Origin: an uncultured bacterium
GTDB taxonomy: Bacteria > Omnitrophota > Omnitrophia > Omnitrophales > Abzuiibacteriaceae
Assembly (NCBI GenBank): GCA_964387845.1
Contig: CAYLXA010000010.1
Coordinates: 32,001 to 96,000 of the forward strand
Reading direction: 5' to 3'
Length of the DNA stretch: 64,000 bases
Position 1 is the stretch's first letter, and each line of letters begins with the position of its first letter. The notes under the pieces were generated by a model that saw only the letters and a list, made by a program, of their open reading frames with translations, was not told where the DNA came from and ran no database searches. A program made the position numbers and the translations under genes. This document shows, piece by piece, positions 34,969 through 64,000 of this stretch.

Positions 34969-37900
34969 TTAGGAGAATAATGCGGGTTGTCTGCGAGTCG
35001 ACCACTGAGGAAAAAGAGGAGATAACAGTTGGCTGACATCAATTCCTAAGCCGGCAAATCCTGAAAAAACAGGCGGAACCGGCGGAATATTGGGAAAAAG
35101 GAGGTTTCCGTTAAAAAACACATTTCCGGAAGGCTCATTGGGGCCGCCTAAATCGAAATTCAGGTCGGTATTCGGATTCACTAATTCACCATTAATATCA
35201 CCGTCGATGCTAATCGATGTACCGCCGCCATCTTGGCCGCCTGCGATTGTGGTCAGAACCGCACCGTTATTAATATCAACATCGATGCCGTCACCGGTGA
35301 CGCCAATCGTACCGCCTGCTGTTATACTGGAATCGGATCCGGCCGTAATATTATTCGCTGCACCGTTTCCATCCAGGACATTTCCGGTTGTGGCTTCAAT
35401 CATCACACTGCCATTGCCGGCATTAATGGTTCCTAAAATAAGGTCACCTGTCGGCGTAATCACGCAAATATCGCCATTCGCAACGGATGAATTGGCATTG
35501 ATCGTCGCCCCATCGGCCTCCATGATGAAAATACCGCCGGTTTGGCTGATCGCGTTGATCGTATTCGCTGCGGTATTCATTTTATTGAGAAGTGTTCCGA
35601 CCGAATTTCCAAAAAATTCAATATTGCTGCTCGTAATCACCGTTCCGATATTTCCGTCATCAAAAACATTGCCTGCTTGCGCCGTAAAACTCGCTGAGTT
35701 GGTCGTGTTCACACTGCCGACGGTGATATCGCCCGCCGTTGTGGTCAATGAAAAATCAGAATAACCGTTGATGCCTGTTGCCGAAGAAGCGCCGCCTGCT
35801 GTTGCGGTGACTGAGCCATTGGTCAAAAAGTTAGCGCCCGTAAAATTCATCCCGTTCAAACTGTTCATCGCAATGTTGCCATTCGCCGTGCTTTGAGCCA
35901 CAAATGAATTCACATTAAAATCAATGTCGCCGTTTGCAAGTGCAGAACCAATATTCCCAAGCGCCGTCAAGGAAAGTGAATTTGCATTAATCCGCGTTGA
36001 TTGCACAAAATCATCCACGATATTTCCGCCGGATGCGGTCAATGTTACATCGCCGTTGCCGGCATTGATACTTTGCAACGCCGCATCACCCAGAACCATA
36101 TCGCCTGTGGCGCTATTAATATTGATATCGCCATTCGCAGCCGAAGAATCCAAACCTTGAATGGTGACCGCGTCTAATTCATCAATAAAAATACCGCCGT
36201 TATTTGCAGTAATGCTGAGCGTAGCTGCTGCTGTGTTAATTTTGTTAGCAAGTGTCCCAACGGCATCTCCGATTAATGTGATGAGCCCGCCTGTGATTCT
36301 GGTAGCGTTGTTGGCGTCATCCACCAAATTTCCAGCTGCCGCCGAAAGCACCACATCACCCAAGCCTGCGTTGATGGTTCCAATGGTTAAATTGCCGAGT
36401 GTTGAAACAACATCAATCGTGCCATTTGCAGCCGAAGAATTCATATTGTTCAAAGTTGCGCCATTGGATTCACGCAAGAAAATGCCGCCGGCGTTTGCGG
36501 TTGCGTTCAATGTTGCTGCCGTCGTATTAATTCTCGCCGCCAAAGTTCCGATTGCATTTCCGACAAGCGTAATCACGTTGCCGCTTAAATTAGAAGTAGC
36601 ATCTACCAGATTTCCCGCGAGCGCTGTTAAACCGATATTTCCGGCTGTCGTGATAGTGCCAAGATTTAGATCGCCGGTTGTGGACGTCACATTGATATCG
36701 CCGGAACCCGTTGTGGCACCGACGGTCGCTCCGTTGGATTCTGTGACGTTGATTTCGCCTGTGCCGGTTCCTGTGATGTTAAGAGTTGTGGCCGTGGTAT
36801 TAATCGCAGCGCCTGATTGACCCACGTCACCGTCCGCGCCGCCTGCAATTAAGTTCACAATCACACCTGCAACACTGGAAGCCACGCCACCCAATAAGTC
36901 ACCTGCCAAAGCTGTTAAAGTTACATTGCCGGTTGTGGAGATGGTTCCAAGCGTTAAATCACCGGTGGTTGTTCTGACATCAATATTGCCGGAACCTGTC
37001 GTGGCGCCGACTGTCGCTCCGTTCGACTCTGTTACGAAAATATCGCCTGTGCCCGCACCGGTTAAGTTTAACGTGCCGGCCGTGGTCATAATTCGTCTCG
37101 TAGAAGTTCCGACATCACCGTCCGCGCCGCCCGCTGCGAGATTGACTGTAGTGCCGGTTACGGATGAATCCGCGTTCGTGTCGGTCACATCGCCATTTGA
37201 AGCAGCTAACGTCACTGCATTCGTAGCGCTCACGGTCCCGACTTCGAGATCACCCGAAGTGGTTGTCATGGAAAAATTTGTGTAGCCGGTTGCGCCGGTA
37301 ATGGACGAAGCACCCTCGGTTGTAACTGTCACAGACCCGGCGGTAACAAAATCAGCGCCCGTTAAAGTCGCGCCGCCGCCTGCGATTCTCGCAAAAATAT
37401 CACCATTACCAGAACTTGTCAGCGCTCCGACATTAGTAGTGGATGTGATATCCACGTCGCCATTCGCAGCTGATGAACCGATATTACTGGACGCGGTCAT
37501 GTTCACAGTTGAAGCAGAAACCGCCGTCGCTTGATTTCCGTCATCTAAAATGTGCCCGGCGTTGGCATTAACCGTCACCGTGTTTTCGGCATTCACAGTG
37601 CCAAGCGTCACATTACCGGTGGTTGCCGTTAAATCGATATTGTTTGTGCCGGTCCCGGTGGCAGAAGCATTGACGACCGTTAAATCACCGGCAGCCGTAA
37701 TAATAATTGAATCATTTACGGCAGATGCGTTGTTAACCGTCAGCGCCTGATCATTGGTAACGATAATTCGCCCATTGGCAGCAGCTGCATTCAGGGAGTT
37801 TGCACTAAGGTCAATATCGCGATTGCCGGTCGTTTGTCCGATATCCACCGCCGCATTGAGCGTTACTTCGTCGCCCGTAATTCGGGTTGCATCATCGTTA

Positions 37901-40167: not shown

Positions 40168-40185
40168 TAACACTCTTTCCTCTTG

Positions 40186-40215
40186 GATTTCCCTGAGTTC
40201 GGAAGCTGACTGCCA
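40186..40215 (-). promoter_or_regulatory. Conserved 5'-leader element of tpsA (TCAGCTTCCGAACTCAGGGAAATCC on the mRNA), copy 1
   Basis: Near-identical to 45449-45477 upstream of the second tpsA. It lies 20-50 nt upstream of the start codon. Confidence 0.45.
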
Positions 40216-40490
40216 TGACGGTTGCAACCGTTTTAGGCTCTTGAGTTTTGCCTCATTCTACGCTCAGTCGCTTACGCGCTGGGCTTCGAAGAGCTCTACG
40301 AAGCCAAGCCGCGAAGGACTTGGCGAAGTAGAGGCCTTACTCTTTCGAGTAATTTGCCTCCGCCATACAGCGTAGCGGATCCGCCACGCTTTGTGGCGGA
40401 CTTTCGTTCAGAGATAAGATGATAAAACTAAAAAAAATTTTACCATATTGAGAAGATATTGCAAAAATTAAGATAAAAAACAGATAAAAC

Positions 40491-42464: not shown

Positions 42465-45425
42465 TTAGAAGATTCCGAGAGACGGGCCGTGTCCTTGCTG
42501 TCCTGTTGCGGGCAAAACAAACAAAGCATTCAACAGATCAGTTGGTGTAATACCCGCCGCTAATAATTGAGCTAACGTTGTAAGGCCGCCTGTAGCGGTT
42601 GTAGTCACAACAACTGCATCGATCGGGAAAAGCTTAATACCGTTGAAGAAAACGGTTCCGGGAGGCGTTGTCAAGACATCCGGATCGCCAAAATTAAGAT
42701 TGGCACTAGGGTCTTCAACTTCGCCATTGATAACACCTTCTAAATTAATCGAGGTATCATCAGCATCCGTACCGCCTGCGCGGACAGTTAGCGTTGCGTC
42801 ATTTGTAATGTTGACATCGATTCCGTCAGCGGTAACGCCGATTGTACCGGCGGCTTCTAAGGTCGAATCCGCTCCAGCTACCACATTAACCGCAGCTCCA
42901 TTTGCATCCAAAATACTGCCGGTTAACGCATTGATAAATACCGAACCCGCCGTAGAAATCAAGCCAAGCAGCCAGTCACCGGTTGTAGATGTAACATTGA
43001 TGTTGCCGGAATCTGTTATTGCATTCAGGTTCGCTCCATCTGCCTCTACGATATTGACTTCACCGGTTCCAGTACCTGTAATGTTGAGCGTATCGGCTGT
43101 CGTGTTAATAGCAGCGCCAGCCTGTCCGACATCTCCATCCGCACCACCTGCAATTAAATTCACGATAGTACCCGTCACACTCGAAGCAACACCGCCCAAA
43201 AGGTCGCCTGCAAGCGCCATAAGCGTAACATTGCCCGTTGCCGCAATTGTGCCTAACGTCCAATCACCTGTTGTGGTAGTGGCATTAATATCGTTTGCAG
43301 CTGTTGCATCCAATATCGCACCATTCGATTCCGTAACAAAGATTGATCCCAATGTTGAAACAAGGTTCAAAGTGCTAGCCATTGTATTAATCATCAAATC
43401 GCCTAGCCCCCCAACATTTCCATTTGCTGTCAGAATCACGGTGCTGGCTGAGATCAAAGACCCTGCGGTGCCTAAAATGCTGCCGCCGAAGGCATTCAAT
43501 TCAATATGATTGGCCAACGCATAACCGATCAGCAAATCACCGGTAATAACATTGCCCAAGATGCTGCCGGGAGCTTCTGCATTCAAGATAACGCTGTCTA
43601 ATTCATTAAAGATGATGGAGCCGGTGTTCACTATGAAGTAAAGCACATCGGCAGCCGTATTGATGATTGCATCACCCACGCCGCCGATATCATTGCCGGC
43701 CGATAGAATCACGGTGCTGGCTGAGATCAAAGACCCTGCGGTGCCTAAAATGCTGCCGCCGAAGGCCGCTAACTCAACTGTTCCATTTCCCGCGTTCATT
43801 GTGCCGACGTTAATGTTTCCAGAATTTGACAAGACTCCAATCATTCCATTATTTGAGGACGTATCAATGTTCGTGATAGTCGCGTTATTTGTAGTAATGA
43901 ACACATTGCCGCCGCTCACAATATCGCTACCGGCAGCTTGGACAAAATCTCCTGAGTTGTCGGCATCAACGTCCGTATTGATATTCAGAACACTGCCAGT
44001 GTCCGCTGTAATATCTGCATTGACCGTAACGCCTTCATTTGCCGTAATGGCAACATTGCCAAAAACCTGCAGGTCGCTCAATAATGAAACCCCGCCATCG
44101 GCAAAAATACTGGAGCCATCATTCATAACAAATGAACCTGCGCCGCTGCTATCGGCATCTGCCTGAAACGCTGCGCTTCCGCCTGTCACATTGACACTTG
44201 CACCAGCATTAAAAATAAGGTCGTTATTAGCAAAAAAGTTTTGATCTCCGGCAAAATTATTAACACCGTCAAAAATAATGTCGTCACCGGCGCCTAATTC
44301 AAAATCGCCTCCGCCGGAGCCTGTGCGAGCATGCACATCTGACCGCAGCCCACGGACAGAAATTGACCCGTTGTCTAAATAGATGTTATTCGCAAAAATT
44401 CCGCCATAACCGGCAAGCCCGCCTTCCAAGGCATCTGCCAGAATACTGCCGGAATGCGCAACAGTTTGCCCTTCAATGCGGAGATAGCCAGCATCTGCAT
44501 TTTCAACGCTGCCGCTCACATTCAAAACTCCCGAATTATGAACAGCGCCACCATTACCAATAAGCTCGATCACACCGTTTCTAACAACCACGCTGACGGC
44601 TTCGATAATGCCTGTGTTATTGACAAGCTGAGTAAAAATATTTCCCACAGTCTCGGCCCGCAACAGGACTTTTCCGCCATCGGCTTTAATGAGACCTGCG
44701 TTAGCAACCGCGACTTCGCTTTCATTATTAATGGTTGAAACAAGCGCTTCAGGAATAGAGAGATTGATGAGGCCGTTCGGATCAAATGTAATCGTCGCAG
44801 TTTCACCGCTGGCAAGAACCACAGACCCTAATTCAGCGACAATGCTTCCCATATTGGCTACGGAGCTGCCCAAGAGGACAACAAAACCGCCCGGCTGAGC
44901 CACAATATGGCCTTCATTAATAACACTTCCGGCTTGAGAACCATTTTCGAAGGTGTAATTTCCGGAGAGGAAGTTTGCTGTAGAAATACTAAGTGTTGAG
45001 GCAACCAGGCCGGCCACATCGATATTGGCCATTGACCCTATGTTAATGCCGGCTGGATTAACGATAAATACAAAGCCGTTTGAGAATAAATTTCCGAATA
45101 TATTGGAAGCTACACCGCCGGTCACGTTATTTAAAACCGAACCGCCGGCAATATTAAACCAAAAGTTAAAGGTTTGTCCCAAATCAATATTGAATTGATC
45201 CCAATTAAAAACCGTTCCATCTTGAAGCCCGTTAAATGTACAACCCGAAGCATCGCAGCTATAGCTATCATAACCACCCGCTTCAACCTCCGGCGGCACA
45301 ACATCGTCCGCATACAAAGGAATTACTTGAAAACAAAAAAGGGCAAATGAAAGGACAAGGGAAAGAACTTTGAAATATTTGGAAACCCGAATGGAGTTAA
45401 GCGTTACAACTTTTGGAAGCTGCAT
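42465..45425 (-). CDS. Two-partner-secretion exoprotein TpsA paralog (TPS domain plus beta-helical repeats)
   Basis: TPS domain: GTVFNWDQFNIDLGQTFNFWF...NIFGNLFSNGFVFIVNPAGINIG...FENGSQAGSVINEGHIV. The C-terminal tail is homologous to the other TpsA (..VFFNG..LFP..). Confidence 0.85.
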   Translation of the reverse strand: MQLPKVVTLNSIRVSKYFKVLSLVLSFALFCFQVIPLYADDVVPPEVEAGGYDSYSCDASGCTFNGLQDGTVFNWDQFNIDLGQTFNFWFNIAGGSVLNNVTGGVASNIFGNLFSNGFVFIVNPAGINIGSMANIDVAGLVASTLSISTANFLSGNYTFENGSQAGSVINEGHIVAQPGGFVVLLGSSVANMGSIVAELGSVVLASGETATITFDPNGLINLSIPEALVSTINNESEVAVANAGLIKADGGKVLLRAETVGNIFTQLVNNTGIIEAVSVVVRNGVIELIGNGGAVHNSGVLNVSGSVENADAGYLRIEGQTVAHSGSILADALEGGLAGYGGIFANNIYLDNGSISVRGLRSDVHARTGSGGGDFELGAGDDIIFDGVNNFAGDQNFFANNDLIFNAGASVNVTGGSAAFQADADSSGAGSFVMNDGSSIFADGGVSLLSDLQVFGNVAITANEGVTVNADITADTGSVLNINTDVDADNSGDFVQAAGSDIVSGGNVFITTNNATITNIDTSSNNGMIGVLSNSGNINVGTMNAGNGTVELAAFGGSILGTAGSLISASTVILSAGNDIGGVGDAIINTAADVLYFIVNTGSIIFNELDSVILNAEAPGSILGNVITGDLLIGYALANHIELNAFGGSILGTAGSLISASTVILTANGNVGGLGDLMINTMASTLNLVSTLGSIFVTESNGAILDATAANDINATTTTGDWTLGTIAATGNVTLMALAGDLLGGVASSVTGTIVNLIAGGADGDVGQAGAAINTTADTLNITGTGTGEVNIVEADGANLNAITDSGNINVTSTTGDWLLGLISTAGSVFINALTGSILDANGAAVNVVAGADSTLEAAGTIGVTADGIDVNITNDATLTVRAGGTDADDTSINLEGVINGEVEDPSANLNFGDPDVLTTPPGTVFFNGIKLFPIDAVVVTTTATGGLTTLAQLLAAGITPTDLLNALFVLPATGQQGHGPSLGIF

Positions 45426-53157: not shown

Positions 53158-53210
53158 GCTTCAGGCTTCAAGATTCCAACCTGCGGCTTGTGGCCTGCAG
53201 CTTGAAGCCG
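53138..53210. repeat. Palindromic intergenic repeat of the same family as 21593..21666
   Basis: tacaagctacaagctgcaagcttcaggcttcaag...cttgtggcctgcagcttgaagc, with inverted arms around an approximately 14-nt loop. Confidence 0.6.
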
Positions 53211-53479
53211 CGTTGTTTGGTTTTTCTATAATTGAGGAATAATACGGCGGCGAAACTTCCGATGATCAAGAACGGAATCGAGATCATAAACAAAACACTC
53301 CAATTAAAGCCCACCGATGTCCATATTTCTTTTAACTTACCGACCGCTTCTTTGCAGGCTGGGCACGCGTAGGCGCTTTCAGAAAACAGAGGACAGAGAA
53401 CAGAGAACAGAAAAATCCGGAATGTACGTTCACTCTGTGCTCTGCGCTCTGTGCTCTGTACTCTTAGTTGTTTCTGCAT
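53168..53479 (-). CDS. Small membrane protein with a CPAC motif; the annotated N-terminus is encoded by a long hairpin, so the true start is uncertain
   Basis: C-terminal part ...AYACPACKEAVGKLKEIWTSVGFNWSVLFMISIPFLIIGSFAAVLFLNYRK. The N-terminal 30 codons correspond to the repeat hairpin 53382-53465. Confidence 0.3.
   Translation of the reverse strand: MQKQLRVQSTERRAQSERTFRIFLFSVLCPLFSESAYACPACKEAVGKLKEIWTSVGFNWSVLFMISIPFLIIGSFAAVLFLNYRKTKQRGFKLQATSRRLES
53382..53465 (-). terminator. Long imperfect hairpin built from heptad repeats (ACAGAGA x3 versus CTCTGTG x3) followed by a U-run on the minus strand; probable terminator of the oxidase operon
   Basis: The 5' arm cagaggacagagaacagagaacag pairs with the 3' arm ctctgtgctctgcgctctgtgctctgtactc. 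The minus-strand transcript continues with UUUUCU. It lies 15-100 nt downstream of the DUF420 stop. Confidence 0.5.
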
Positions 53480-53480
53480 A

Positions 53481-53894
53481 TCACATCCTGTACAGCATCC
53501 AATAAATCACAACGCCCGTGATAGACACATAAAGCCAGACCGGAAACGCGATTTTAGCAATTTTCACGTGCTTTTCAAACCTGCTCTTGAGTGCTTGATA
53601 TAAAGATGCGATTGCAAGCGGCGGAACAAATACGGCTAAAACTGTATGCGAAATCAGAATCGTAAAATAAACCGGCCGGATCCAGCCCTGATGCGGAAAT
53701 GGTGTGCTTCCGTGATGAAAATGGTAATAAAGATAAGAAATCAGGAAAAGTGTGGACGTTACCATGGCAAAACACATGCAGAGCGCGTGTCCCGTCCATG
53801 CCCTTTGCTTGATCATGATAAAGCCCAGCACAATTAAAAGTGCACTGGTCGTATTGAGCCCTGCGTTTAATGCCGGGAGCGCCTCTAGATTCAT
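53481..53894 (-). CDS. DUF420 family membrane protein (cytochrome-oxidase-associated)
   Basis: Four TM helices with the conserved His-rich loop YYHFHHG. It sits in the usual position next to SCO1 and cox genes. Confidence 0.8.
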   Translation of the reverse strand: MNLEALPALNAGLNTTSALLIVLGFIMIKQRAWTGHALCMCFAMVTSTLFLISYLYYHFHHGSTPFPHQGWIRPVYFTILISHTVLAVFVPPLAIASLYQALKSRFEKHVKIAKIAFPVWLYVSITGVVIYWMLYRM

Positions 53895-54469
53895 AGGGAT
53901 TGTGCCTCGCTAAGAAGTTCTTTCATTTTACCGGGTTCCGTACTGTCAAAAAAACCCCGGATATTGCCTTCCCGGTCAACCAGCACAAACCGGCTGCTAT
54001 GCATAACAGGTTCAGCGCCCTGTTTTAAATCTTCGTCGCTTGCATCCTGAACGCCCAGCATAAATCCGCCCGAAACAAGTTCCCAGATTTTTGACTTGTC
54101 ACCCGTCAGAAAAACCCAGCGGCTTTCATCTGCGCGATATTTTTTCGCATAATCCGATAAAACTTGCGGCGTATCATAATCCGGATCCACACTGAACGAT
54201 ACAAACCGTACATCCGTTCCCTTCAAGTCATCCTGCAAATTCATCATCTGCCCGCTCATTAAGGGGCACATGCCTTGGCAGCGCGTGAAAATAAAATTGG
54301 CAATCCAAACTTTGCCTGTGAGAGAGTCGGATGAAAAAACATTGCTGCTTTGATCAATTAATTGAAAGTGCGGCGCTTTTCCGTAAAAAGATTGCCCGGA
54401 TTCTGCCAAAGCAATCGACGGGCTTAAAATCGGGAAAAGCAAAAAGGATAGAATGAGAATAAGTTTCAT
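53891..54469 (-). CDS. SCO1/SenC copper chaperone for cytochrome oxidase
   Basis: Thioredoxin-like fold with the CxxxCP motif FIFTRCQGMCP and a downstream His. Confidence 0.9.
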   Translation of the reverse strand: MKLILILSFLLFPILSPSIALAESGQSFYGKAPHFQLIDQSSNVFSSDSLTGKVWIANFIFTRCQGMCPLMSGQMMNLQDDLKGTDVRFVSFSVDPDYDTPQVLSDYAKKYRADESRWVFLTGDKSKIWELVSGGFMLGVQDASDEDLKQGAEPVMHSSRFVLVDREGNIRGFFDSTEPGKMKELLSEAQSL

Positions 54470-54478
54470 TAGAAAAAT

Positions 54479-55387
54479 TTATTTTAAAATGGCCGCTAAT
54501 GCGGAACGGATGTCGGGATATTGAAATTGAAATCCGGAAGCCTGTGTCTTTTTCGGTAAAACTTTCGCGCTTCCAAGCAGTAAAACAGACATTTCTCCAA
54601 GTAAGATTTTGAGCACAAATTCGGGAACCGGCATCAAGCACGGGCGGCTCAATACTTGCGCCAGCACCATAGAAAACGCTTTATTGGTAACCGGCTGAGG
54701 CGCCGTTCCGTTCAAAGCGCCGCTGACGCGTTCATTGGCGATTGAAAATTCAATTAATCTCACCAGATCGTCCCGATGAATCCAGCTCATCCACTGATTG
54801 CCGGATCCGAGCCAGCCGCCTGCGAAAAATTTAAACGGCGGCAGCATTTTCTGAAGTGCCCCACCGTCTTTTCCCAGCACAATTCCGATCCTGATTTTAA
54901 CCACACGAACGCCGAAATCCTGAACACGGATTGCGTGCGCTTCCCAGGCCTTGCAAGCACCTGCTAAAAAATCGGCTCCTGAGTTTGAATCTTCACTGAG
55001 CTCCTCATTTCCGCGCTCTCCATAAATACCGATTGCGGATGCATTGACCAAAACCCGCGGCTTGCGCTTGGCCCTTTCAATTGAGTGAGCGATGGTTTTA
55101 GTGGCATTCACCCGGCTGGTCAGAATTTTTTCTTTTTGCAATTTTGACCAACGCTTCCCCACAATCGGTTCTCCGGCAAGATTGATCACCGCGTCTGAGC
55201 CGTCAATTTCACGGATAATTTGATTGTCGATATCGGGATTCCAGACAACATGGCGGATTTTGCCGTGAATTTGGCCGGGCTTTGCGGTGCGGCGTGATAG
55301 AACAGTCAGGTCGTGCCCCTGCTTCATCAAGGAATTGACGAGAGCACGGCCTATAAAACCGGTGGCGCCGGTAATGACGATTCTCAT
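54479..55387 (-). CDS. TIGR01777 (YfcH-like) NAD-dependent epimerase/dehydratase-family protein with DUF1731
   Basis: MRIVITGATGFIGRALVNSL... and the C-terminal DUF1731 region. Confidence 0.85.
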   Translation of the reverse strand: MRIVITGATGFIGRALVNSLMKQGHDLTVLSRRTAKPGQIHGKIRHVVWNPDIDNQIIREIDGSDAVINLAGEPIVGKRWSKLQKEKILTSRVNATKTIAHSIERAKRKPRVLVNASAIGIYGERGNEELSEDSNSGADFLAGACKAWEAHAIRVQDFGVRVVKIRIGIVLGKDGGALQKMLPPFKFFAGGWLGSGNQWMSWIHRDDLVRLIEFSIANERVSGALNGTAPQPVTNKAFSMVLAQVLSRPCLMPVPEFVLKILLGEMSVLLLGSAKVLPKKTQASGFQFQYPDIRSALAAILK

Positions 55388-55677
55388 TTTATGAGTGGCT
55401 GCTTATCGAAAAGAACTAGAATGGTTAAAATACAGGCGAGAAAAAGCGGAAATACAACGATGAAGTAAATAATCAGCTTCTCAAATTTCAGATGCATATA
55501 GTAAAGTGCAACGAGCGCGGCTTTTACGATGGCGAGAAAAATTAATAAAAGCATAATTATAATTTTCGCGACCGGCAGCTGAGCGGTAAAAATTTCAAGT
55601 ATCGTTAGAATAAACAAACTCCAGAAAACCGCCGCATAATTGGGCTGCTTGTGGGCTGCTGCTTCTGTTTCGCTCAC
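55384..55677 (-). CDS. coxD: Cytochrome c oxidase subunit IV (prokaryotic COX4 family)
   Basis: 97-aa, 3-TM protein (...YAAVFWSLFILTILEIFTA..) positioned after coxC. Confidence 0.75.
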   Translation of the reverse strand: MSETEAAAHKQPNYAAVFWSLFILTILEIFTAQLPVAKIIIMLLLIFLAIVKAALVALYYMHLKFEKLIIYFIVVFPLFLACILTILVLFDKQPLIK

Positions 55678-55688
55678 TTTTTCTCTCC

Positions 55689-56279
55689 TTACACCAAATA
55701 CAAAATGGTAAACAAAATAATCCAGACCAAATCAACAAAATGCCAGTAAAGGCCGGCGAGTTCCACGCCTGCGTACTCTTCCGGCGTATATTTTCCGTAT
55801 AAACTTTTAATAAAAATAACGGCCAGCCAAACAACGCCTGCAAAAACGTGCGCGCCGTGAAAACCGGTCAGCGTAAAGAAACAGGATCCGAAAATGCTGG
55901 ATGAAATCGTAAATTCTTTATGATGAATGAGTTCCTGGTATTCGTGATACTGAATCGCCAAAAAGAGTGACCCAAGAAGAACCGTCAGAAAAAGCCCGAC
56001 ATGGAGACCTTCTTTATAACCACGCTGAATGCTCGCAAGCCCCATCACGAGCGTCATGCTGCTGCAAATCAAGATAAACGTATTAAAACCGGTTAACGGA
56101 ATATTAAGAACTGTAGCAGGATCCGGCCATGAGGCCATATTCTGAAACCGGAGCACGATATAAGCACCGATAAGCCCCGTGAAAAACATGATTTCGGAAG
56201 CCAGAAACAGCCAAATGGCGAACTTGCGCGAATCGACGCCGATTCCGCCCGTGTGTGAAGGTGTGTGGGTCTGTTCCAT
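55689..56279 (-). CDS. coxC: Cytochrome c oxidase subunit III
   Basis: A typical COX3 with its conserved His/Glu TM pattern (...FLASEIMFF..GFHGAHV..). Confidence 0.9.
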   Translation of the reverse strand: MEQTHTPSHTGGIGVDSRKFAIWLFLASEIMFFTGLIGAYIVLRFQNMASWPDPATVLNIPLTGFNTFILICSSMTLVMGLASIQRGYKEGLHVGLFLTVLLGSLFLAIQYHEYQELIHHKEFTISSSIFGSCFFTLTGFHGAHVFAGVVWLAVIFIKSLYGKYTPEEYAGVELAGLYWHFVDLVWIILFTILYLV

Positions 56280-56280
56280 A

Positions 56281-57186
56281 TTAAAATCCGGTTCCTTTAT
56301 CGCCTACCATTAAAATAAAAACAAGTGTCAAATACGCGACCGATGCGCGCAGGACGTAACGCGCGCGCTCATCCAGATTCGGAAGCGCGTAAATAATCAC
56401 AGCCGCAAAACAAATCCCGAGCAAAAAGACACCGAAAAAGTAAACGCTGCCCGTCATTCCGAAAATAGTCGGCAAGAGGCTTACGCATAAAAGCGCGCTC
56501 ATATTAAGCACCATTTGCCGGCCCACTATTTTACCGTCCGGGTCCAAAACCGCAAGTGTCGGAAATCCGGCGCGCGCATAATCGGCTTTGTACATCCAGT
56601 CGATCGCAAGAAAGTGCGGGACCTGCCAGAAGAAAATAATTAAAAAAAGCGACAATGCTTGGATGTTGAACTCCCCGCCTGCGGCCGACCAACCGATTAA
56701 AGGCGGCAGCGCTCCTGGAATCGCACCCGCGAAAGTCGCAAGTGACGTCCGTTTTTTAAGCGGTGTATAGACCAACAAATAACTAAGCGACGTCAGCGCC
56801 GCAAAAACCGCGCTTTGCGGATTAACGGAGAAAAAAAGATAGGCAATTCCGGCAAAAGTTGCCGTCAATCCGAAAATGAGGCCCTGGACGGGCATGAGCC
56901 TGCCGGCTGCAACCGGCCGGTTCCGGGTCCGGATCATTTTTGCATCCGCTTCGTGTTCCATCACTTGATTGAGTGCCATCGCACCCGCTCCGACAAACGC
57001 CGTTGCTAAAATAACGCCAAAATACGAAAGAAACGAAATATTTCTTGCGGCCAAATAAAACCCAACGGATGCGCTGAGCAAGACAAGCGATAAAAGCCTG
57101 GGCTTCGCAAGCTCTAGATAATCCTGAATCGTTCCGGAGCGCAAAAATGCCTTCGGCAACGCGACAGATTCTGAATGGTGGTTCAT
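56281..57186 (-). CDS. ctaB: Protoheme IX farnesyltransferase (heme O synthase)
   Basis: UbiA prenyltransferase family with 8-9 TM segments and conserved Asp-rich loops. Confidence 0.9.
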   Translation of the reverse strand: MNHHSESVALPKAFLRSGTIQDYLELAKPRLLSLVLLSASVGFYLAARNISFLSYFGVILATAFVGAGAMALNQVMEHEADAKMIRTRNRPVAAGRLMPVQGLIFGLTATFAGIAYLFFSVNPQSAVFAALTSLSYLLVYTPLKKRTSLATFAGAIPGALPPLIGWSAAGGEFNIQALSLFLIIFFWQVPHFLAIDWMYKADYARAGFPTLAVLDPDGKIVGRQMVLNMSALLCVSLLPTIFGMTGSVYFFGVFLLGICFAAVIIYALPNLDERARYVLRASVAYLTLVFILMVGDKGTGF

Positions 57187-58049
57187 GCGATATTTGCCTT
57201 CTGGAATTTATAAATCCGGAGCACCAAAAATACGCCCGTTCCAAGCAGTAAAGCGCCGAGCGTTTGGTGGCTCGTTACGAAAAACAGGCGGCCAAACGAA
57301 GGCTGAATGGTTTCCGGTAAAATCATCGTGTAAATAAAAGAACCCATGCCGAGTGAAATTTGAATCAAAGAAATTAATCCGAGAAAAACCGCCGGATAAA
57401 TCAGCTTTTTCTCTGAAAAGTTCCTGAGCGCATATGCCGCAAGCGCTACCACATGAAAAATGACCAAAAATGCGCCCGCAATATGCGGAACCAATACAAT
57501 TCGATGATCGGTATGGCGCACTGTCGCTCCCAAAATCAATTGCAGATAAATAAGAGCAATGGTCAGCAGTGCTAATTTTTTAAAAACGGGCAGTTCAGAC
57601 AAACTTCCCGAAAATTCATTTGACCATTCTTTGGAATAAAAATAAGCGATGGCGATCACCGTTGCAAAAAAAGTTTGCGCGAGGCACGCGTGTAAAATAG
57701 AAATCGGCGCAGGAAGCAAAAACATAACCGTAAGGCCTCCCAAAATTCCCTGAGCAACCACCATACCGAGCGCGGCAATTCCAAGGTGCCTGAGCCAGCG
57801 CCGCTTTTCGGTGATTCCGCACCAAATCGTAAAAACAAGCGTCATAAAACCGACTAGGCTTGCAATCATCCGATGGCCATGCTCGTAAAATATACCGCCC
57901 ACCATCGGCGGCATCCATTGTCCGTAAGAGAGCGGCCAATCCGGAACCGCGAGGCCGGAGCCGGTGCTCGTCACCATTCCGCCTGCGATGATCAGGAAAA
58001 ATGTCACGGCTGCCAATAATTTTGTATATCTCGCCAACCAAATATTCAT
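57183..58049 (-). CDS. ctaA: Heme A synthase (COX15/CtaA)
   Basis: Eight TM helices with conserved His pairs. The start is assigned to the ATG at 58049 (MNIWLARYTKLL). The 53-codon upstream extension in the ORF track overlaps coxA and was rejected. Confidence 0.85.
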   Translation of the reverse strand: MNIWLARYTKLLAAVTFFLIIAGGMVTSTGSGLAVPDWPLSYGQWMPPMVGGIFYEHGHRMIASLVGFMTLVFTIWCGITEKRRWLRHLGIAALGMVVAQGILGGLTVMFLLPAPISILHACLAQTFFATVIAIAYFYSKEWSNEFSGSLSELPVFKKLALLTIALIYLQLILGATVRHTDHRIVLVPHIAGAFLVIFHVVALAAYALRNFSEKKLIYPAVFLGLISLIQISLGMGSFIYTMILPETIQPSFGRLFFVTSHQTLGALLLGTGVFLVLRIYKFQKANIA

Positions 58050-58050
58050 A

Positions 58051-59733
58051 CTAATTCGGGTCTGCCTGTGCGTGCCAATCTTTTGAGCGGCCGGGTTCGC
58101 TGTATTCATAAGGGCCGCGGTAAACCGTCGGAACCTTCTCAAAATTACCGTGCGGCGGCGGCGAAGGCGCTGTCCACTCGAGCGTATTGGCTTCCCACGG
58201 ATTTGCATCGACTTTCTCGCCCCAAAATAAACTTTTGATTAAATTCACGAGCATGACGATTTGGGAAACGCCGAGTAAAAACGCGCTGATCGTAATAAAC
58301 ACATTAATCGGCTGCATGTGCTGGATGTGCACATACTGCATCGGATCATAAATCCGGCGCATGTGGCCGCCGACACCCAAAATATGCATCGGAAAAAATG
58401 TGCAGTTGAAGAAAATAAACGTCAAAGCAAAATGAATTTTCCCGAGTTTTTCACTCATCCTGCGGCCGAACATTTTCGGAAACCAATAATAAATTCCGGC
58501 AAACGCGGCAAACATGCTGCCGCCGAATAAAACATAGTGGATGTGGCCAACGATAAAGTAAGTGTCGTGAATGAACATATCGACCGCGGTGGACGCCATA
58601 AAAATGCCGCTCAAGCCGCCGATCACGAACATCGAAACAAACGCGATCGCATTCAGCATTGGGGTCGTAAACCGGAGCGTCCCCCGCCACATCGTCCCGA
58701 GCCAGTTAAACGTTTTAATCGCCGACGGAACCGCAATTAACATCGTTGAAAGCATAAACGTAGTCCCGATTGCCGGATTCATGCCGCTTTGAAACATGTG
58801 ATGGCCCCACACGATAAATCCCAAAAACGCGATTGCCGTAATCGCATACACCATCGCTTTATAACCAAATATTGGTTTCCTGGAAAATGTCGACAGTACG
58901 TCCGATACAATTCCCATTCCCGGCAAAATCATGATGTACACCGCCGGATGCGAATAAAACCAGAACAAATGCTGCCATAAAATCGCATTCCCACCGCCCT
59001 CTGAGAGGAAAAAGTGCGTACCCATGGTGCGGTCAAAAAGAAGCATGATCATTGCAGCCGTCAAAACCGGCGTTGCGAGAAGCGATAAAATCGAGGTGAT
59101 AAAAATTGCCCAAGTCGTCAAAGGCATCCTAAAAAGTGTCATGCCAGGTGCGCGCATGTTAAGGATCGTCGTGATGTAATTCAGAGCGCCCATGATCGAA
59201 GACGTTCCGACTAAAATGACGCCGATGATCCAATAAGTTTGGCCGGAAGGTTCAATCGCACTGAGCGGCGGATAAGCAGTCCACCCCGAAGCACCTGCGC
59301 CTCCGGGAACAAAAAATCCTGCGAGCACCACAAAAGGCGCCGGCAAGAAAAACCAGTAAGAAAGCATGTTGAGGCGCGGAAACGCCATGTCGGGCGCCCC
59401 GACTTGCAGAGGAACCACGAAATTTCCGAAGGCGCCGACCAAAATCGGAATAATCGCGAAGAAAATCATGACGGATGCGTGAATCGTAAACAGCTGGTTA
59501 TAAAATTCGGGAAGCATAATGCCGCCTACCATCATGCTATCCGGGAACCAATCTCCCAAAATCGGCATGGGTTTTCCGGGATATGCCAGCTGCCATCTTA
59601 ATAGAAGCGCCAAAAGCCCGCCGACTAAAAAGAAGAAGAATGTGGTAAATAAAAACTGGATCCCGATCACTTTGTGATCGACCGAAAATACGTATTTTTT
59701 CCAAAAACTCATTTTATGCTGATCGTGACTCAT
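58051..59733 (-). CDS. coxA: Cytochrome c oxidase subunit I (heme-copper oxidase, A-type)
   Basis: 560 aa with all canonical heme a/a3-CuB His ligands, including GHPEVY-like and HHMF regions. Confidence 0.95.
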   Translation of the reverse strand: MSHDQHKMSFWKKYVFSVDHKVIGIQFLFTTFFFFLVGGLLALLLRWQLAYPGKPMPILGDWFPDSMMVGGIMLPEFYNQLFTIHASVMIFFAIIPILVGAFGNFVVPLQVGAPDMAFPRLNMLSYWFFLPAPFVVLAGFFVPGGAGASGWTAYPPLSAIEPSGQTYWIIGVILVGTSSIMGALNYITTILNMRAPGMTLFRMPLTTWAIFITSILSLLATPVLTAAMIMLLFDRTMGTHFFLSEGGGNAILWQHLFWFYSHPAVYIMILPGMGIVSDVLSTFSRKPIFGYKAMVYAITAIAFLGFIVWGHHMFQSGMNPAIGTTFMLSTMLIAVPSAIKTFNWLGTMWRGTLRFTTPMLNAIAFVSMFVIGGLSGIFMASTAVDMFIHDTYFIVGHIHYVLFGGSMFAAFAGIYYWFPKMFGRRMSEKLGKIHFALTFIFFNCTFFPMHILGVGGHMRRIYDPMQYVHIQHMQPINVFITISAFLLGVSQIVMLVNLIKSLFWGEKVDANPWEANTLEWTAPSPPPHGNFEKVPTVYRGPYEYSEPGRSKDWHAQADPN

Positions 59734-61220
59734 ACCGCGCCTCCATGCGCTGCTTCGTTAAGCCATGCTGTAAAACCTTCCGGCGAGTGAATCGTTAAAA
59801 ATCCGCGCATACGGTAATGCCCAAGTCCGCAAAACTCGGCGCAAGCGATTTCATATTTCCCCGTCCGCGTTGCCTCAAACCATACGTCAATCGCCATACC
59901 GGGCACAACGTCCTGCTTCAAACGAACTTCCGGCAAAAAGAAACTGTGCAGCACAGGATGATTGTTGTCTTTACCGATCGATGTCAGCCGAACACGCACC
60001 GGCTTTCCGACCGGAATATGAAGTTGATTGACAGTTTTAATATCATCCGAGGTTCCGAATTTTCCGTCAGCGCCGGGATAATTCACATTCCACGCAAATT
60101 GCTCGGCCTGAATTTCAACAGAAACAGAATCCTGCGGCGGTTCTTTTTTAAGATCCACCCAAATTACCTGGCTCCAAATCATCAGCACCACCAAAATAAT
60201 GGACGGAATAATCGTCCAAATCAGCTCCAAACGGTCGTTGCCGTGTGTATAAGTTGCCTTGGCGCCGGGCCTATCTCGGTATTTGAAAAGAAACATCACG
60301 AGTGCAATCTGCACGCCGAAAAAGACGACTCCGGTAATAACCAAGATCACATAAAATAATTGGTCAATCTTTGCGCCGTAGGTTGAAATATTTTCCGGAA
60401 GCCACCAACCTGTTTTTGCGCGCGGAAGGTCAGTTGCGGCAGAATCGTCGTAACGCTCGATCGGTTTCGGCTCTTCAGTCGTAATTTTAAGGCCGCTTGA
60501 TTCATCAACGATTTCTTTTGTACTGAACTGAAAATCAAGCTGCGCTTCGCCTGCGGCATCCACTTTGATTTTTCCGGTCTTGGTGCCGTAAACTTCATGC
60601 CACGCCTCAATCGTATATTCACCGGCCGGGACATTTTCCAGCTTAAAACTGCCGTCATCACCTGTAACGCTAAAAAACGGATGCTTTAAAGCGCCGACAT
60701 AGGCATTCATCCACGGATGCACATCGCACTTAAATTTGATCATGACTTCGGGGTTCGAAAATGTTTTCTCGAGCTTCATGCCCTGAAGCGGCATGCCGAG
60801 ATTAAATTCCGGGTTCAGCTTGCCCAATGCGTGAACGTTGTGGAGTGTTGCATCGCTATTCAGGATGGACAATTTCTGGCCGGTCTGGATACCTTGTACG
60901 TGCGGCTCATACCAACAGCCTTTTTGATCCAAAATAACGGGCTCGGAAGGAACCGGGAATTTTTCGTCTTTCAGGCCTTCTTTAACATAAACAAAAACAT
61001 TCTTGAGGGTTCCGTTTGAATTAATTTTGACTTTTTCCGCAATAAAACCGGAAGGATGCATGGATTTGCAGACGGGATCCGCGCCCATATCGACTTTTGG
61101 GTTGTCGGGCTGCGCGCCGTCAAAATTGGCTTTTCCCGTAATGGTTCCGGCTTGTGCGACGGAACAAAACAGGAACAAGCTTAAAAAGAAACTGGTTATT
61201 AATTTTGAATTTTTCATCAA
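59730..61220 (-). CDS. coxB: Cytochrome c oxidase subunit II fused to an N-terminal cupredoxin-like periplasmic domain (~235 aa)
   Basis: The C-terminal half has 2 TM helices and the CuA site H...CAEFCGLGHYRM. The N-terminal half, GTITGKANFDG...HNVH...KCDVHPWM, is a paralog of the upstream gene and carries blue-copper-like His/Cys/His/Met ligands. Confidence 0.9.
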   Translation of the reverse strand: MMKNSKLITSFFLSLFLFCSVAQAGTITGKANFDGAQPDNPKVDMGADPVCKSMHPSGFIAEKVKINSNGTLKNVFVYVKEGLKDEKFPVPSEPVILDQKGCWYEPHVQGIQTGQKLSILNSDATLHNVHALGKLNPEFNLGMPLQGMKLEKTFSNPEVMIKFKCDVHPWMNAYVGALKHPFFSVTGDDGSFKLENVPAGEYTIEAWHEVYGTKTGKIKVDAAGEAQLDFQFSTKEIVDESSGLKITTEEPKPIERYDDSAATDLPRAKTGWWLPENISTYGAKIDQLFYVILVITGVVFFGVQIALVMFLFKYRDRPGAKATYTHGNDRLELIWTIIPSIILVVLMIWSQVIWVDLKKEPPQDSVSVEIQAEQFAWNVNYPGADGKFGTSDDIKTVNQLHIPVGKPVRVRLTSIGKDNNHPVLHSFFLPEVRLKQDVVPGMAIDVWFEATRTGKYEIACAEFCGLGHYRMRGFLTIHSPEGFTAWLNEAAHGGAV

Positions 61221-61223
61221 ACT

Positions 61224-61919
61224 CTATGCGTTGTAAGCAAACTCGATTGAAACGGGCGCGTCATCCGCAACCGTTACTTTTTGCGTTTGCGTACCGTATT
61301 TTTCATGCCAGGCTTCAATCGTATATTCTCCCGCCGGCAAGTCTTTGATTTCGAAATTTCCGGAATCATCCGAGACGCCGAAAAACGGATGATTCAAAAT
61401 ACCGATAAACGCGCTCATCCAGGGATGAACGTCGCATTTTAATTTCACCATGATTTCCGGTGCTTCAAACTTTTTCTTCAGCTTCATGCCTTGAATCGGC
61501 ATGCCGAGATTGAACTGTTTGCTCTTCTCCGCCATTGAATGAACATTGTGGAGCGTCGGATCGCTGTTAAGAATTTCCAAACTCTGCCCAACTTGCATAC
61601 CAAAAACATGCGGATTGTACTGACATCCTTTTTGATCGATCGTCACGGTTTCAGCCGGCACCGGAAAAGTTTGCGTCCCGAGCCCCTCTTTGACATAAAC
61701 AAACACGTTTTTCAAGGTTCCGTTTGAATTAACGATAACGGTTTCAGCGCGCACAGGACCCGAGTGGGCTGCAACGCATGTCGGATCTGCCGACATTGAT
61801 AAAATTTCGTTTTCAGGCGCAGTGCCCGAAAATTTGACGGATCCCGAAATGGTTCCGGCAAAAACGCTCACAGGAAATAAGCAAATGGATAGAACTAAAA
61901 TGATTGTCTTCATAATCAA
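61224..61919 (-). CDS. Secreted cupredoxin-like protein (amicyanin-like C-x2-H-x2-M site) with an N-terminal carboxypeptidase-regulatory-like beta-sandwich
   Basis: Signal peptide; GTISGSVKFSG; HNVH ... KCDVHPWM. Roughly 60 percent identical to the N-terminal domain of CoxB. Confidence 0.7.
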   Translation of the reverse strand: MIMKTIILVLSICLFPVSVFAGTISGSVKFSGTAPENEILSMSADPTCVAAHSGPVRAETVIVNSNGTLKNVFVYVKEGLGTQTFPVPAETVTIDQKGCQYNPHVFGMQVGQSLEILNSDPTLHNVHSMAEKSKQFNLGMPIQGMKLKKKFEAPEIMVKLKCDVHPWMSAFIGILNHPFFGVSDDSGNFEIKDLPAGEYTIEAWHEKYGTQTQKVTVADDAPVSIEFAYNA

Positions 61920-61927
61920 ACCCCTTC

Positions 61928-64000
61928 TTATTTAAACGTTTCCTTGACCTTTGCCGCTTCTTCCGGCGTAAACACTCTCAAATATTCTTTGATCGCGTGA
62001 ATTTGTTTTATCGCGTCGCCATCCAGAATGTCAGTGACGGGCGTCTCACCGTCCGGGAAAAATCCGGGCATCATCGTCCCCGGCTGAATCGCTTGCGGAT
62101 CTTTCAGCCAATCTTCTACCCAATTAGGCTTAAGCCGGACATGCGCCATGGTCAAATCAGGCGCTAAAAATGAAGCCGACATCCCTTGAGTTTCGCCTTG
62201 GTGACATTGAATACACTTAAATTTTATGAAAAGTTCTCTACCCGCATCAATTGTTTTTTGGGAAGGTTTTAAAGAATCATCTTTTGAAAATGAGATTCTT
62301 TGGTGCGCCAAATTGTGAAAATATTGAACAACAATATCGGTTTCCTCATCATCAAAGCCAAATGTCGGCATTCTGTATTTAAGCCACGGCCGGATCGGCG
62401 TCGGCTCTTGTAAAAATTGATAGAGCCACTCTTCCTGCACTTTGGCACCTTGGCCGTCCAAAGTCGGCGGCGCGTTACCTTTATCTTCGAAAAGAGCTTG
62501 AACGCGGCCTTCAATTCCATCCAGCGTATGGCATCCCTGGCAATTGTATTTGGCAGCCAGGAAGCGGCCTTTTTCGACGGCTTGCTCCCTCAAATCCAGC
62601 TGTTTTTGCATCTCAAGCGGAATATGCTCTTCGCGCAAGCTCAGTAAGAAAGTGACGAGTGAATTGGCTTCTTCGTCCGTAAAATCAAACTGAGGCATCC
62701 GGAGTTTTTCGCTGAAAGTTTTGATTTTGCCTTCGTCAAAACCGCGCGGATGTTTCAGTTTTTGGAAAAACCACGCTTCGCGCGTTTTTTCGATATCCAC
62801 AAAACCAAAATCGAGTTTGCTGACTTCCTTTTGGCCCTGTTTCGTGAGCTCCGTTCCGATCGGCTTCATCGTTTCAAACCCCTTGATGTCGTGACAGCCG
62901 AAACAGCCTTGCTGCAGAATCATTTCGCGGCCGACAAATTCCAATTTGTCGCTTGTGGTCATCTTAGACATTTTCTCGCGGGCTTCCGAATGGCGCATCT
63001 TGCCCGTCAAATAATCCATTGCCAATAAATCCAAATCTTTGTCCGAGGTTTCGGGCAATGAAATCTTTTCAAACTCATGATTGCGGCTTTCAAGCAAGTA
63101 AGTCGTGATGTGAGACGCCTCTTCATCCGTCAGGCGCAAATTCGGCATCCGAGTATTTTCCATGTAATGCTTGGGATCTTTCAGCCATGTAAACAGCCAA
63201 TCAGCGCTCACTTTGCTGCCCATGTTGATTAATTCGGGGCCGTGGTCATTCACGTTTGAATTGTCAACATTATGACAGCCCAAACATCCGAGATCTTTCA
63301 CGAGCTGCTTGCCGACTTCAGCATTGCCTTTTTTGCGCGGCTTTTCAAGCGAGACCTCTTCCGAATGTTTCATCAAATATTCCGCAATACCTTGAATGCC
63401 GACGTTCGATTTCGCGCGGTTTTCCGGCTCCTGCATATTCTCTAAATGGAAAATCCGGGGCATCCAGGTTGACGGGCGGAAAGCTTTCGGATCCTGCAGC
63501 CATTTGGCAATCCAATCTTTCTCAAGCTTGCTTTTCACATTCAGAAGGCTTGGGCCCGCTTTCCATTGATTTTCAAATCCCTTCACCGTATGACAGCCGA
63601 AACAGCCGGCTTTCCGCGCCAAATCGCGGCCTTCGTTTAATTTGGGCGCTTCGGGGACATGGACAACATTGGTATGGCATTTTGTGCAGGAAGCTTCCGT
63701 ATGCTGCAGCGGGAGCATTTTCTTTTCCCACTTCTCGAGTTCATGCCAATGATATTTTTTCTCCCATTCTTTCTTTTGCTCTTCATTCTGCGGCGTGTGG
63801 GCCGTTGTCGTGAAAGTGAGCGAATGCCCGTTCCCGCCATGGCAAACCGTACAGCCGATTTTCTCAAGCGGATGCTTGGAGGATGACCCTAAAAACAAGT
63901 CGAGATTGGGATGGGTTGTGAAAGGCTGCGGTGCGTCTTCATACCCTTTCCGGTCAATCGCCAAATGGCAGGTCGTACAGCGGTCGACTTTGTTGGCTTT
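61928..64000 (-). CDS. Multiheme c-type cytochrome (at least 7-8 CxxCH), partial; the ORF is open to the window edge
   Basis: CxxCH motifs present: CTVCH, CTKCH, CFGCH, CLGCH, CFGCH, CQGCH and CIQCH. The reading frame reported by the ORF track has no stop before the window edge and its 5' extension carries a further CTTCH, so the gene is 5'-partial. The ORF-track 'M' at 63964 is a TTG, not necessarily the true start. Confidence 0.85.
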   Translation of the reverse strand, partial: KANKVDRCTTCHLAIDRKGYEDAPQPFTTHPNLDLFLGSSSKHPLEKIGCTVCHGGNGHSLTFTTTAHTPQNEEQKKEWEKKYHWHELEKWEKKMLPLQHTEASCTKCHTNVVHVPEAPKLNEGRDLARKAGCFGCHTVKGFENQWKAGPSLLNVKSKLEKDWIAKWLQDPKAFRPSTWMPRIFHLENMQEPENRAKSNVGIQGIAEYLMKHSEEVSLEKPRKKGNAEVGKQLVKDLGCLGCHNVDNSNVNDHGPELINMGSKVSADWLFTWLKDPKHYMENTRMPNLRLTDEEASHITTYLLESRNHEFEKISLPETSDKDLDLLAMDYLTGKMRHSEAREKMSKMTTSDKLEFVGREMILQQGCFGCHDIKGFETMKPIGTELTKQGQKEVSKLDFGFVDIEKTREAWFFQKLKHPRGFDEGKIKTFSEKLRMPQFDFTDEEANSLVTFLLSLREEHIPLEMQKQLDLREQAVEKGRFLAAKYNCQGCHTLDGIEGRVQALFEDKGNAPPTLDGQGAKVQEEWLYQFLQEPTPIRPWLKYRMPTFGFDDEETDIVVQYFHNLAHQRISFSKDDSLKPSQKTIDAGRELFIKFKCIQCHQGETQGMSASFLAPDLTMAHVRLKPNWVEDWLKDPQAIQPGTMMPGFFPDGETPVTDILDGDAIKQIHAIKEYLRVFTPEEAAKVKETFK

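Follow-up and report, generated by a model that had tools for sequence, protein, structure and literature searches.

A duplicated, putative type-1 copper module, free-standing and fused to cytochrome oxidase subunit II, in an operon of an uncultured Omnitrophota bacterium

Background

Blue-copper proteins are established as electron donors to terminal oxidases, as in the case of sulfocyanin (SoxE, Sulfolobus SoxM), halocyanin, auracyanin and, for the cyanobacterial cytochrome oxidase (COX), plastocyanin. The best-studied oxidases of the A2 type are the caa3 enzymes. The operon described here is located in a window of 64,000 nucleotides (the whole stretch of DNA analysed; positions 32,001 to 96,000 of contig CAYLXA010000010.1, assembly GCA_964387845.1, from an uncultured Omnitrophota bacterium). 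It encodes an A2-type oxidase whose subunit II (CoxB) begins with a predicted copper module, and a second copy of this module is encoded immediately upstream as a separate secreted protein.

As in the caa3 subunit II of Thermus, Rhodothermus and Bacillus, the predicted donor is covalently tethered to an A-type subunit II, and in the related proteins P0192-P0195, P0204 and P0297 the module occupies exactly the C-terminal position of the caa3 type. The tethered carrier differs from that of caa3 oxidases in being a predicted copper protein rather than a haem c protein, and in the window it is N-terminal, preceding the first transmembrane helix (TM1).

Rusticyanin and AcoP are the blue-copper donors of Acidithiobacillus (PMC4059628, PMC10804444). 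In common with the blue-copper donors, the cupredoxin of this system would stand in for cytochrome c, or supplement it, in the step from a quinol-oxidising complex to a haem-copper oxidase, is often membrane-tethered, and is encoded in or beside the oxidase operon. Unlike them, since they are separate single-domain proteins of other subfamilies, the module belongs to a two-domain family which is fused to oxidase subunits in several lineages. Amicyanin (Paracoccus; PDB 1aac), plastocyanin, pseudoazurin and Nmar_1307 (PDB 5fc9) are likewise single-domain proteins, whereas the cupredoxin of the module is embedded in a transthyretin-like sandwich and is accompanied by an extra N-terminal segment with an invariant pair of cysteines (C48/C99).

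No description of a cupredoxin-COX2 fusion or of the module family was found in the open full-text literature, subscription journals lying outside this search. A paper on archaea of acid mine drainage mentions fusions and blue copper, but no COX2 fusion, and a survey of the Omnitrophota scores only the presence of "cytochrome c oxidase". The "plastocyanins" of Caldithrix have been proposed in the literature as acceptors for alternative complex III. The points on which the present system appears to differ from those known are the two-domain carrier, its membership in a very large family that lacks a model of its own and is linked to oxidase operons, and its covalent attachment to subunit II (at either end) or subunit IV.

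The putative copper module

Judged from sequence and predicted fold, the duplicated unit is best read as a periplasmic type-1 (blue) copper module, in which an amicyanin-like cupredoxin lies inside a transthyretin-like beta-sandwich. It is probably a one-electron carrier feeding the CuA centre of the A2-type oxidase, and would receive its electrons by way of a Rieske/cytochrome b complex and a multihaem cytochrome. The relevant features of the window are:

61224-61919, minus strand: free secreted copper module, 231 aa
61548-61550, minus strand: first predicted ligand of the free module, H124
61416-61436, minus strand: ligand loop of the free module, C162-D-V-H165-P-W-M168
59730-61220, minus strand: CoxB, 496 aa, with signal peptide, predicted copper module, linker, two transmembrane helices and CuA domain
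60522-61151, minus strand: N-terminal copper module of CoxB, aa 24-233 (~210 aa)
60840-60842, minus strand: H127, predicted ligand of the CoxB module
60708-60728, minus strand: ligand loop of the CoxB module, C165-x2-H168-x2-M171
60405-60521, minus strand: linker of ~39 aa (aa 234-272) from the module to TM1, predicted to be flexible
59733-60404, minus strand: COX2 core, with TM1 (aa 282-314), TM2 (aa 329-359) and the CuA cupredoxin domain

The initial annotation, made from the letters alone, had put the N-terminal domain of CoxB at about 60 percent identity to the upstream protein. Both open reading frames (ORFs) were found at the positions listed, and BLASTP aligned CoxB with the 231-aa protein at 125 identities in 221 residues (57%) without gaps (E 7e-95), a similarity far beyond chance and in agreement with that estimate. 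The motifs HNVH and KCDVHPWM are present in both proteins.

In the free module a signal peptide (aa 1-21) is followed by a transthyretin-like sandwich in two parts (aa 22-31 and 180-230), which enclose a cupredoxin (approximately aa 60-175). The sandwich scored above the Pfam gathering threshold for CarboxypepD_reg (PF13620) and has the transthyretin-like beta-sandwich fold, the match being limited to residues 182-228, that is, to profile positions 33-80 of 82. Because the N-terminal strand GTISGSVKF (residues 22-31) completes this sandwich, the cupredoxin was interpreted as an insertion in a split domain; the inserted part comprises the cupredoxin and a preceding segment which holds an invariant cysteine. 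The initial annotation had described the start of both proteins as CarboxypepD_reg-like, and the GTI(T/S)G strand does belong to the sandwich, but the Pfam similarity itself sits in the C-terminal ~50 residues of the module.

The inserted domain has the greek-key beta-sandwich fold of cupredoxins and Foldseek was concordant for this part, while no PDB chain spanning both domains was found by Foldseek (best query-normalised TM-score 0.35). A single-protein sequence search of the PDB gave only weak matches (5fc9, E 0.065). A family profile built from 39 diverse members (38-56% identical to the query) matched 5fc9 (E 6e-6), the C-terminal cupredoxin of 9cck (E 4e-5) and amicyanin (E 3e-4). Hidden Markov model searches for cupredoxin, CarboxypepD_reg and COX2 had been proposed in the initial annotation; the latter two domains were recognized by Pfam, and the cupredoxin by this profile search against the PDB.

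In the profile alignment H124, C162, H165 and M168 fall on His53, Cys92, His95 and Met98 of amicyanin, which are its four copper ligands. The amicyanin-like C-x2-H-x2-M site previously proposed is thus retained as far as the ligand register is concerned; the second histidine of HNVH is not conserved in the family, and the predicted ligand is the first. Copper is presumably bound, and the site would be redox-active in the potential range of cytochrome c. The module is not an amicyanin in the sense of TIGR02657 (13.3 bits against a cut-off of 110.2), and no mau (methylamine dehydrogenase) genes were found in the window or in related loci. Its cupredoxin core is not covered by any Pfam or NCBIfam model.

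Size and conservation of the module family

Among 1.84 billion representatives at 50% identity, 14,215 proteins matched at E<=1e-3, of which 1,802 reached E<=1e-30, and a word-indexed search returned at least 7,772 matches, most of them of ~230 aa. The family spans more than 10 phyla, and its members carry database labels such as "plastocyanin" (JGI) and "carboxypeptidase regulatory-like domain-containing protein" or "hypothetical protein" (NCBI). Many of the free members have a lipobox followed by a low-complexity linker. Periplasmic carriers that are tethered to the membrane are usually lipoproteins with tethers of this kind.

Such a module could in principle be a non-redox beta-sandwich, acting as a structural cap or binding domain, with ligand-like residues that are vestigial. 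Pfam matches that exceed or approach threshold on the module are confined to sandwich families of the CarboxypepD_reg type, and Cys or Met has been lost in a few members (P0291; the first modules of P0253, P0306 and P0358), both of which would fit. However, 140 of the 149 representatives at 50% identity (94%) retain the His...Cys-x2-His-x2-Met pattern, across phyla in which the proteins are only 38-56% identical overall, and the cupredoxin fold and ligand register match those of amicyanin. A vestigial site is hardly credible against this background, and the module is preferably regarded as a type-1 copper protein. All 57 fused orthologues aligned share H127, C165, H168 and M171 of the CoxB module.

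Besides the putative ligands H124 and H165, the residues C48, C99, P103, D120, E155, W167, G187, G197, Y199 and H205 were invariant in the 39 members, and N125, C162 and M168 were conserved in at least 90% of them. A second metal or haem site at the motifs "DP.C...H" and "GC.Y.PH" was considered and rejected. Because C48 and C99 are invariant while the histidines of these motifs vary, a disulfide is the simpler explanation, and C48-C99 likely joins the N-terminal helix to the cupredoxin. H205 lies in a WHE motif of the sandwich domain and could be near the copper site at the domain interface.

P0253, P0306, P0358 and P0238 are tandem two-module proteins with a degenerate first module (C..H.WE or C..H.WV, no HN), which suggests that copper-free or altered-ligand paralogues occur within the family.

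Cytochrome oxidase subunit II

CoxB scored 161.4 bits with TIGR02866 (cut-off 147.7), and contains the Pfam domains COX2_TM (aa 275-350) and COX2 (aa 389-471). The CuA motif CAEFCGLGHYRM is located at aa 460-471 (59808-59843), and the ligand set H425, C460, E462, C464, H468 and M471 is present, so that the site is intact. With the exception of E462 these residues are invariant among the fused orthologues (alignment A5). No CxxCH, CxxxCH or CxxxxCH motif occurs in CoxB, which is accordingly not a subunit II of the caa3 type; a CxxCH overlooked in the initial annotation was looked for, and the absence of a c-type haem domain noted there was borne out.

The N-terminus resembles a signal peptide, with a hydrophobic stretch at residues 6-25 that ends in AQA|GT. 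Given this signal peptide and the two transmembrane helices, the module should after export lie on the periplasmic side, the same as the CuA domain. In an AlphaFold2 model of full-length CoxB (mean predicted local distance difference test score, pLDDT, 83.5) the domains are confident, residues 240-260 have a pLDDT of 50-68, and the predicted template modelling (pTM) score is 0.54. Since the linker has low pLDDT and the pTM is of this order, the module looks like a flexibly tethered domain.

Fusions and history of the module

The initial annotation had suggested a survey of N-terminal extensions of COX2. The N-terminal fusion is conserved in ~70 clusters at 90% identity (54-95% identical, 468-557 aa), and every member with a named source is from Omnitrophica. 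The type-1 and CuA ligands are both invariant in the 57 N-terminal fusions aligned.

Fusions of other architecture were also identified. In P0192-P0195, P0204/P0384, P0297 and P0404/P0405 the module follows COX2 after an acidic/Pro-rich linker, in the place of the caa3 cytochrome c domain. At one locus with such a C-terminal fusion (L084), the fused COX2 is preceded by a free module and by a cytochrome c protein of 1,696 aa, giving again one free and one fused copy. P0251 is an oxidase subunit IV joined to the module through a Pro/Ala/Glu-rich linker of ~230 residues. In P0328 and P0381, annotated as PuuD (Labilithrix), the module occupies the site of the C-terminal cytochrome c, which has been described as invariant in the PuuD family (PMC4562309). 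No CxxCH was found in any of the fusions of the module to COX2, subunit IV or PuuD. The membrane urate oxidase PuuD (PMC4562309) is a different enzyme with the same logic of a tethered one-electron carrier, and here the module appears to have been substituted for cytochrome c independently.

In a rough distance-based neighbour-joining tree of modules, built without support values, the fused and free copies of Omnitrophota formed two sister clades, C-terminal fusions appeared in at least two other places, and two adjacent free copies at locus L071 represented a recent duplication. The separate clades of fusions indicate that fusion to oxidase subunits arose several times independently. From the two sister clades it follows that the pair in the window goes back to a single old duplication, with both copies retained since. 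A recent local duplication of this pair was ruled out by the separate clades of fused and free orthologues across Omnitrophota.

The oxidase operon and its counterparts

The module genes belong to a tight operon on the minus strand in the order multihaem cytochrome c, 231-aa ORF, CoxB, CoxA, CtaA, CtaB, CoxC, CoxD, NAD-epimerase-like protein, SCO1 and DUF420. The gaps between the cytochrome and the 231-aa ORF and between the latter and coxB are 8 and 3 nt, respectively, and coxB and coxA overlap by 4 nt. Downstream of CoxA the annotations are based on Pfam matches to ORFs. The members not yet listed are:

61928-64000, minus strand: multihaem cytochrome c, C-terminal ~690 aa (Pfam Cytochrom_C x5, Cytochrome_C7, C554)
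58051-59733, minus strand: CoxA (subunit I), A2-type (PF00115, E 3e-159; TIGR02891, 671.2 bits)
57183-58208, minus strand: CtaA, 341-aa ORF, start uncertain
56281-57186, minus strand: CtaB
55689-56279, minus strand: CoxC
55384-55677, minus strand: CoxD
54479-55387, minus strand: NAD-epimerase/DUF1731 protein (YfcH-like), between CoxD and SCO1
53891-54469, minus strand: SCO1
53481-53894, minus strand: DUF420

The edge of the window falls inside the multihaem cytochrome c gene. Its listed ORF contains 7 CxxCH motifs, and with a CTTCH upstream in the same frame there are at least 8 within the window; the protein presumably supplies the copper modules with electrons. The translation of CoxA reads FWFYSHPAVYIMILPG, in which YSHPAVY stands where A1 enzymes have GHPEV, and the enzyme was classified as A2-type. 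The YS(H) motif in helix VI, replacing the conserved Glu of A1 enzymes (GHPEV), is the signature of A2-type haem-copper oxidases.

A counterpart is found at locus L001 (Candidatus Omnitrophica), whose CoxB (P0123) is 73% identical. This locus is fully syntenic and reaches past the edge of the window. Its order is HEAT-repeat protein, Rieske protein, cytochrome b (N part), cytochrome b (C part), 951-aa multihaem cytochrome c, 229-aa module, fused CoxB, CoxA, CtaA, CtaB, CoxC, CoxD, epimerase, SCO1 and DUF420, so that by synteny Rieske and cytochrome b genes are expected just past the end of the window. The 951-aa cytochrome is the orthologue of the one truncated in the window. The order from CtaA to DUF420 is the same in loci L001-L003.

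A scan of genomes (one per species; query alignment of 19 sequences) yielded at least 595 confirmed relatives, the best 80 of which were used for counts of neighbouring genes, identified by tblastn with the window proteins. All 80 loci are from metagenome-assembled genomes, and their bin-level taxonomy, which may be wrong in places, includes Omnitrophota, Acidobacteriota (Thermoanaerobaculia, Vicinamibacterales), Bacteroidota, Rhodothermales, Ignavibacteria, Verrucomicrobiia, Chloroflexota, Planctomycetia, Myxococcales, Bdellovibrionota, Gemmatimonas, Marinimicrobia and others. The module was followed on the same strand and within 1.5 kb by an oxidase gene in 74 of the 80, the next gene being COX2 in 20 loci, CoxA in 22, CtaA in 31 and CtaB in 1. 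A homolog of the multihaem cytochrome lay directly upstream in 21 loci from several phyla, and a Rieske protein was encoded upstream in 15. Most phyla have one module per operon. CxxCH was found in none of the 43 module-linked COX2 genes of these loci; 41 of them have an intact CuA motif, and the remaining two run off their contigs.

Several observations weigh against a role of the module as donor to CuA. The gene right after it in 31 of the 80 loci is ctaA (haem A synthase) and not a structural oxidase gene, and in 6 there is no oxidase gene nearby. In the model of CoxB the module is not placed against the CuA domain with any confidence. Apart from the four putative ligands, there are the invariant residues C48, C99, D120, E155, Y199 and H205, to which no role is assigned.

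The frequency of ctaA fits equally well with a function in assembly. The module would then be an oxidase biogenesis factor, either a copper chaperone loading CuA/CuB or a periplasmic redox partner of CtaA. The chaperones of CuA assembly, PCuAC and Sco1, are likewise periplasmic, bind copper and are encoded near cox genes. PCuAC has a cupredoxin-like fold and the motif H(M)X10MX21HXM (PMC9145763). The module has a His/Cys/His/Met set, unlike the His/Met-only PCuAC and the CxxxC plus His of Sco, and such a set in a C-x2-H-x2-M loop is of the type-1 kind used in electron transfer. No Pfam match to PCuAC (PF04314) or Sco was obtained on the module of either protein at E<=0.1, and the operon contains a separate SCO1. 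A permanent 1:1 fusion to subunit II or IV would be hard to explain for a chaperone, and the module also replaces cytochrome c in PuuD, which is neither a copper nor a haem-a enzyme. A biogenesis factor is quite improbable in view of these points, and a carrier of electrons to CuA is preferred.

Proposed path of electrons

As a carrier, the module would take part in a chain in which electrons pass from quinol through the Rieske/cytochrome b complex to the membrane-associated multihaem cytochrome c encoded just upstream, from there to the free module and/or the tethered one, and from the copper module(s) to CuA, haem a, haem a3-CuB and O2. One copy would be secreted and soluble, and the other tethered to TM1 of subunit II by the flexible linker of ~40 residues. 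Because the best-studied A2 enzymes are caa3 oxidases, the tethered copy may be viewed as a functional analogue of their cytochrome c domain, doing the job of that fused domain in an A2-type oxidase. The delivery of electrons to CuA by blue-copper domains fed from the upstream multihaem cytochrome, as put forward in the initial annotation, is supported by the predicted ligands, by the lack of haem c motifs in CoxB and in the module-linked COX2 genes, by the linkage in 74 of 80 loci, by the fusions and by the operon of L001, whose gene order fits a module fed by the upstream cytochrome. Within the chain, the order would presumably be free copy, fused copy, CuA; that the two copies act in series is a weaker proposal, because most phyla manage with one.

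The modules might carry electrons in a wiring other than this linear chain, which would be compatible with their role as carriers. For instance, only the tethered copy might feed CuA, the free one serving a second Rieske/cytochrome b cluster or a nitrite/NO enzyme, or the electrons might come from the oxidation of a periplasmic substrate (Fe(II)-type, as with rusticyanin) and not from the upstream cytochrome. A single module per operon, as in most phyla, means that two in series are not required. A second cluster of multihaem cytochrome, Rieske protein and cytochrome b is found in L001 (18580-21485), 7 kb downstream of the oxidase operon, from which it follows that this lineage has two Rieske/cytochrome b complexes. 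The closest sequence relatives in the PDB, 5fc9 and the C-terminal domain of a NirK-like protein of Nitrosopumilus, point in the same direction. Against such schemes stand the multihaem cytochrome homologs directly upstream in loci of several phyla, the short gene spacing (3-8 nt), which makes it likely that cytochrome, free module and CoxB are translated together, and the lack of any recognized substrate oxidase, Cyc2-like or other, in the operon. A different wiring is rather unlikely on balance, and the linear chain from the multihaem cytochrome to CuA is retained.

More tentatively, the family may define a widespread "cupredoxin-aa3" class of oxidases, a generalization that we put forward as possible, with the odds somewhat against it. 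In this class electrons would have to enter CuA through a two-domain type-1 copper carrier dedicated to this purpose, which replaces cytochrome c; the carrier would be free, lipid-anchored, or fused to subunit II (at either end) or subunit IV, and Omnitrophota would have two centres in series, as part of an assembly of Rieske/cytochrome b, multihaem cytochrome and oxidase encoded by one operon. If so, the chief connection of complex III-type with complex IV-type enzymes in Acidobacteriota, Omnitrophota, Ignavibacteria and several further phyla with few cultured members would be this carrier, which has no name as yet.

When respiration is reconstructed from genomes, the donor to "cytochrome c oxidases" is usually assumed to be cytochrome c, and about 1,800 or more clusters of the module family adjoin A-type oxidase genes in more than 10 phyla. 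Should the module be a genuine donor, it would explain how the oxidase is fed in many uncultured aerobes with no obvious soluble cytochrome c. It would also represent a copper-for-iron substitution in the respiratory chain, with a bearing on metal economy, and would provide natural covalent type-1-copper/CuA constructs for studies of copper-to-copper electron transfer. The independent N-terminal, C-terminal and subunit IV fusions offer a clean test case for the evolution of tethered carriers.

Other features of the operon and window

The listed CtaA ORF (57183-58208) shares 158 nt with the end of coxA and is longer than its orthologues (303 aa); the true start is probably an internal Met. The epimerase/DUF1731 gene keeps the same position within the oxidase operon in L001-L003. 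DUF420 is followed by a 103-aa ORF (53168-53479, minus strand) with a CPAC motif, a C-terminal hydrophobic helix and no Pfam match. ORFs of 93-101 aa occupy the same position after DUF420 in L001 and L003. The product may be a small thiol- or copper-handling membrane protein.

Elsewhere in the window, a 4,114-aa ORF (1892-14236, minus strand) was identified, its sole Pfam match being an S-adenosylmethionine (SAM)-methyltransferase domain at aa 3253-3397. "Big ORFs" are listed as a trait of the Omnitrophota in a survey of the phylum (PMC10066038). Genes at 34969-40227 and 42465-45425 (both minus strand) encode proteins of 1,752 and 986 aa with N-terminal two-partner secretion (TPS) domains, which are probably secreted filamentous exoproteins or adhesins.

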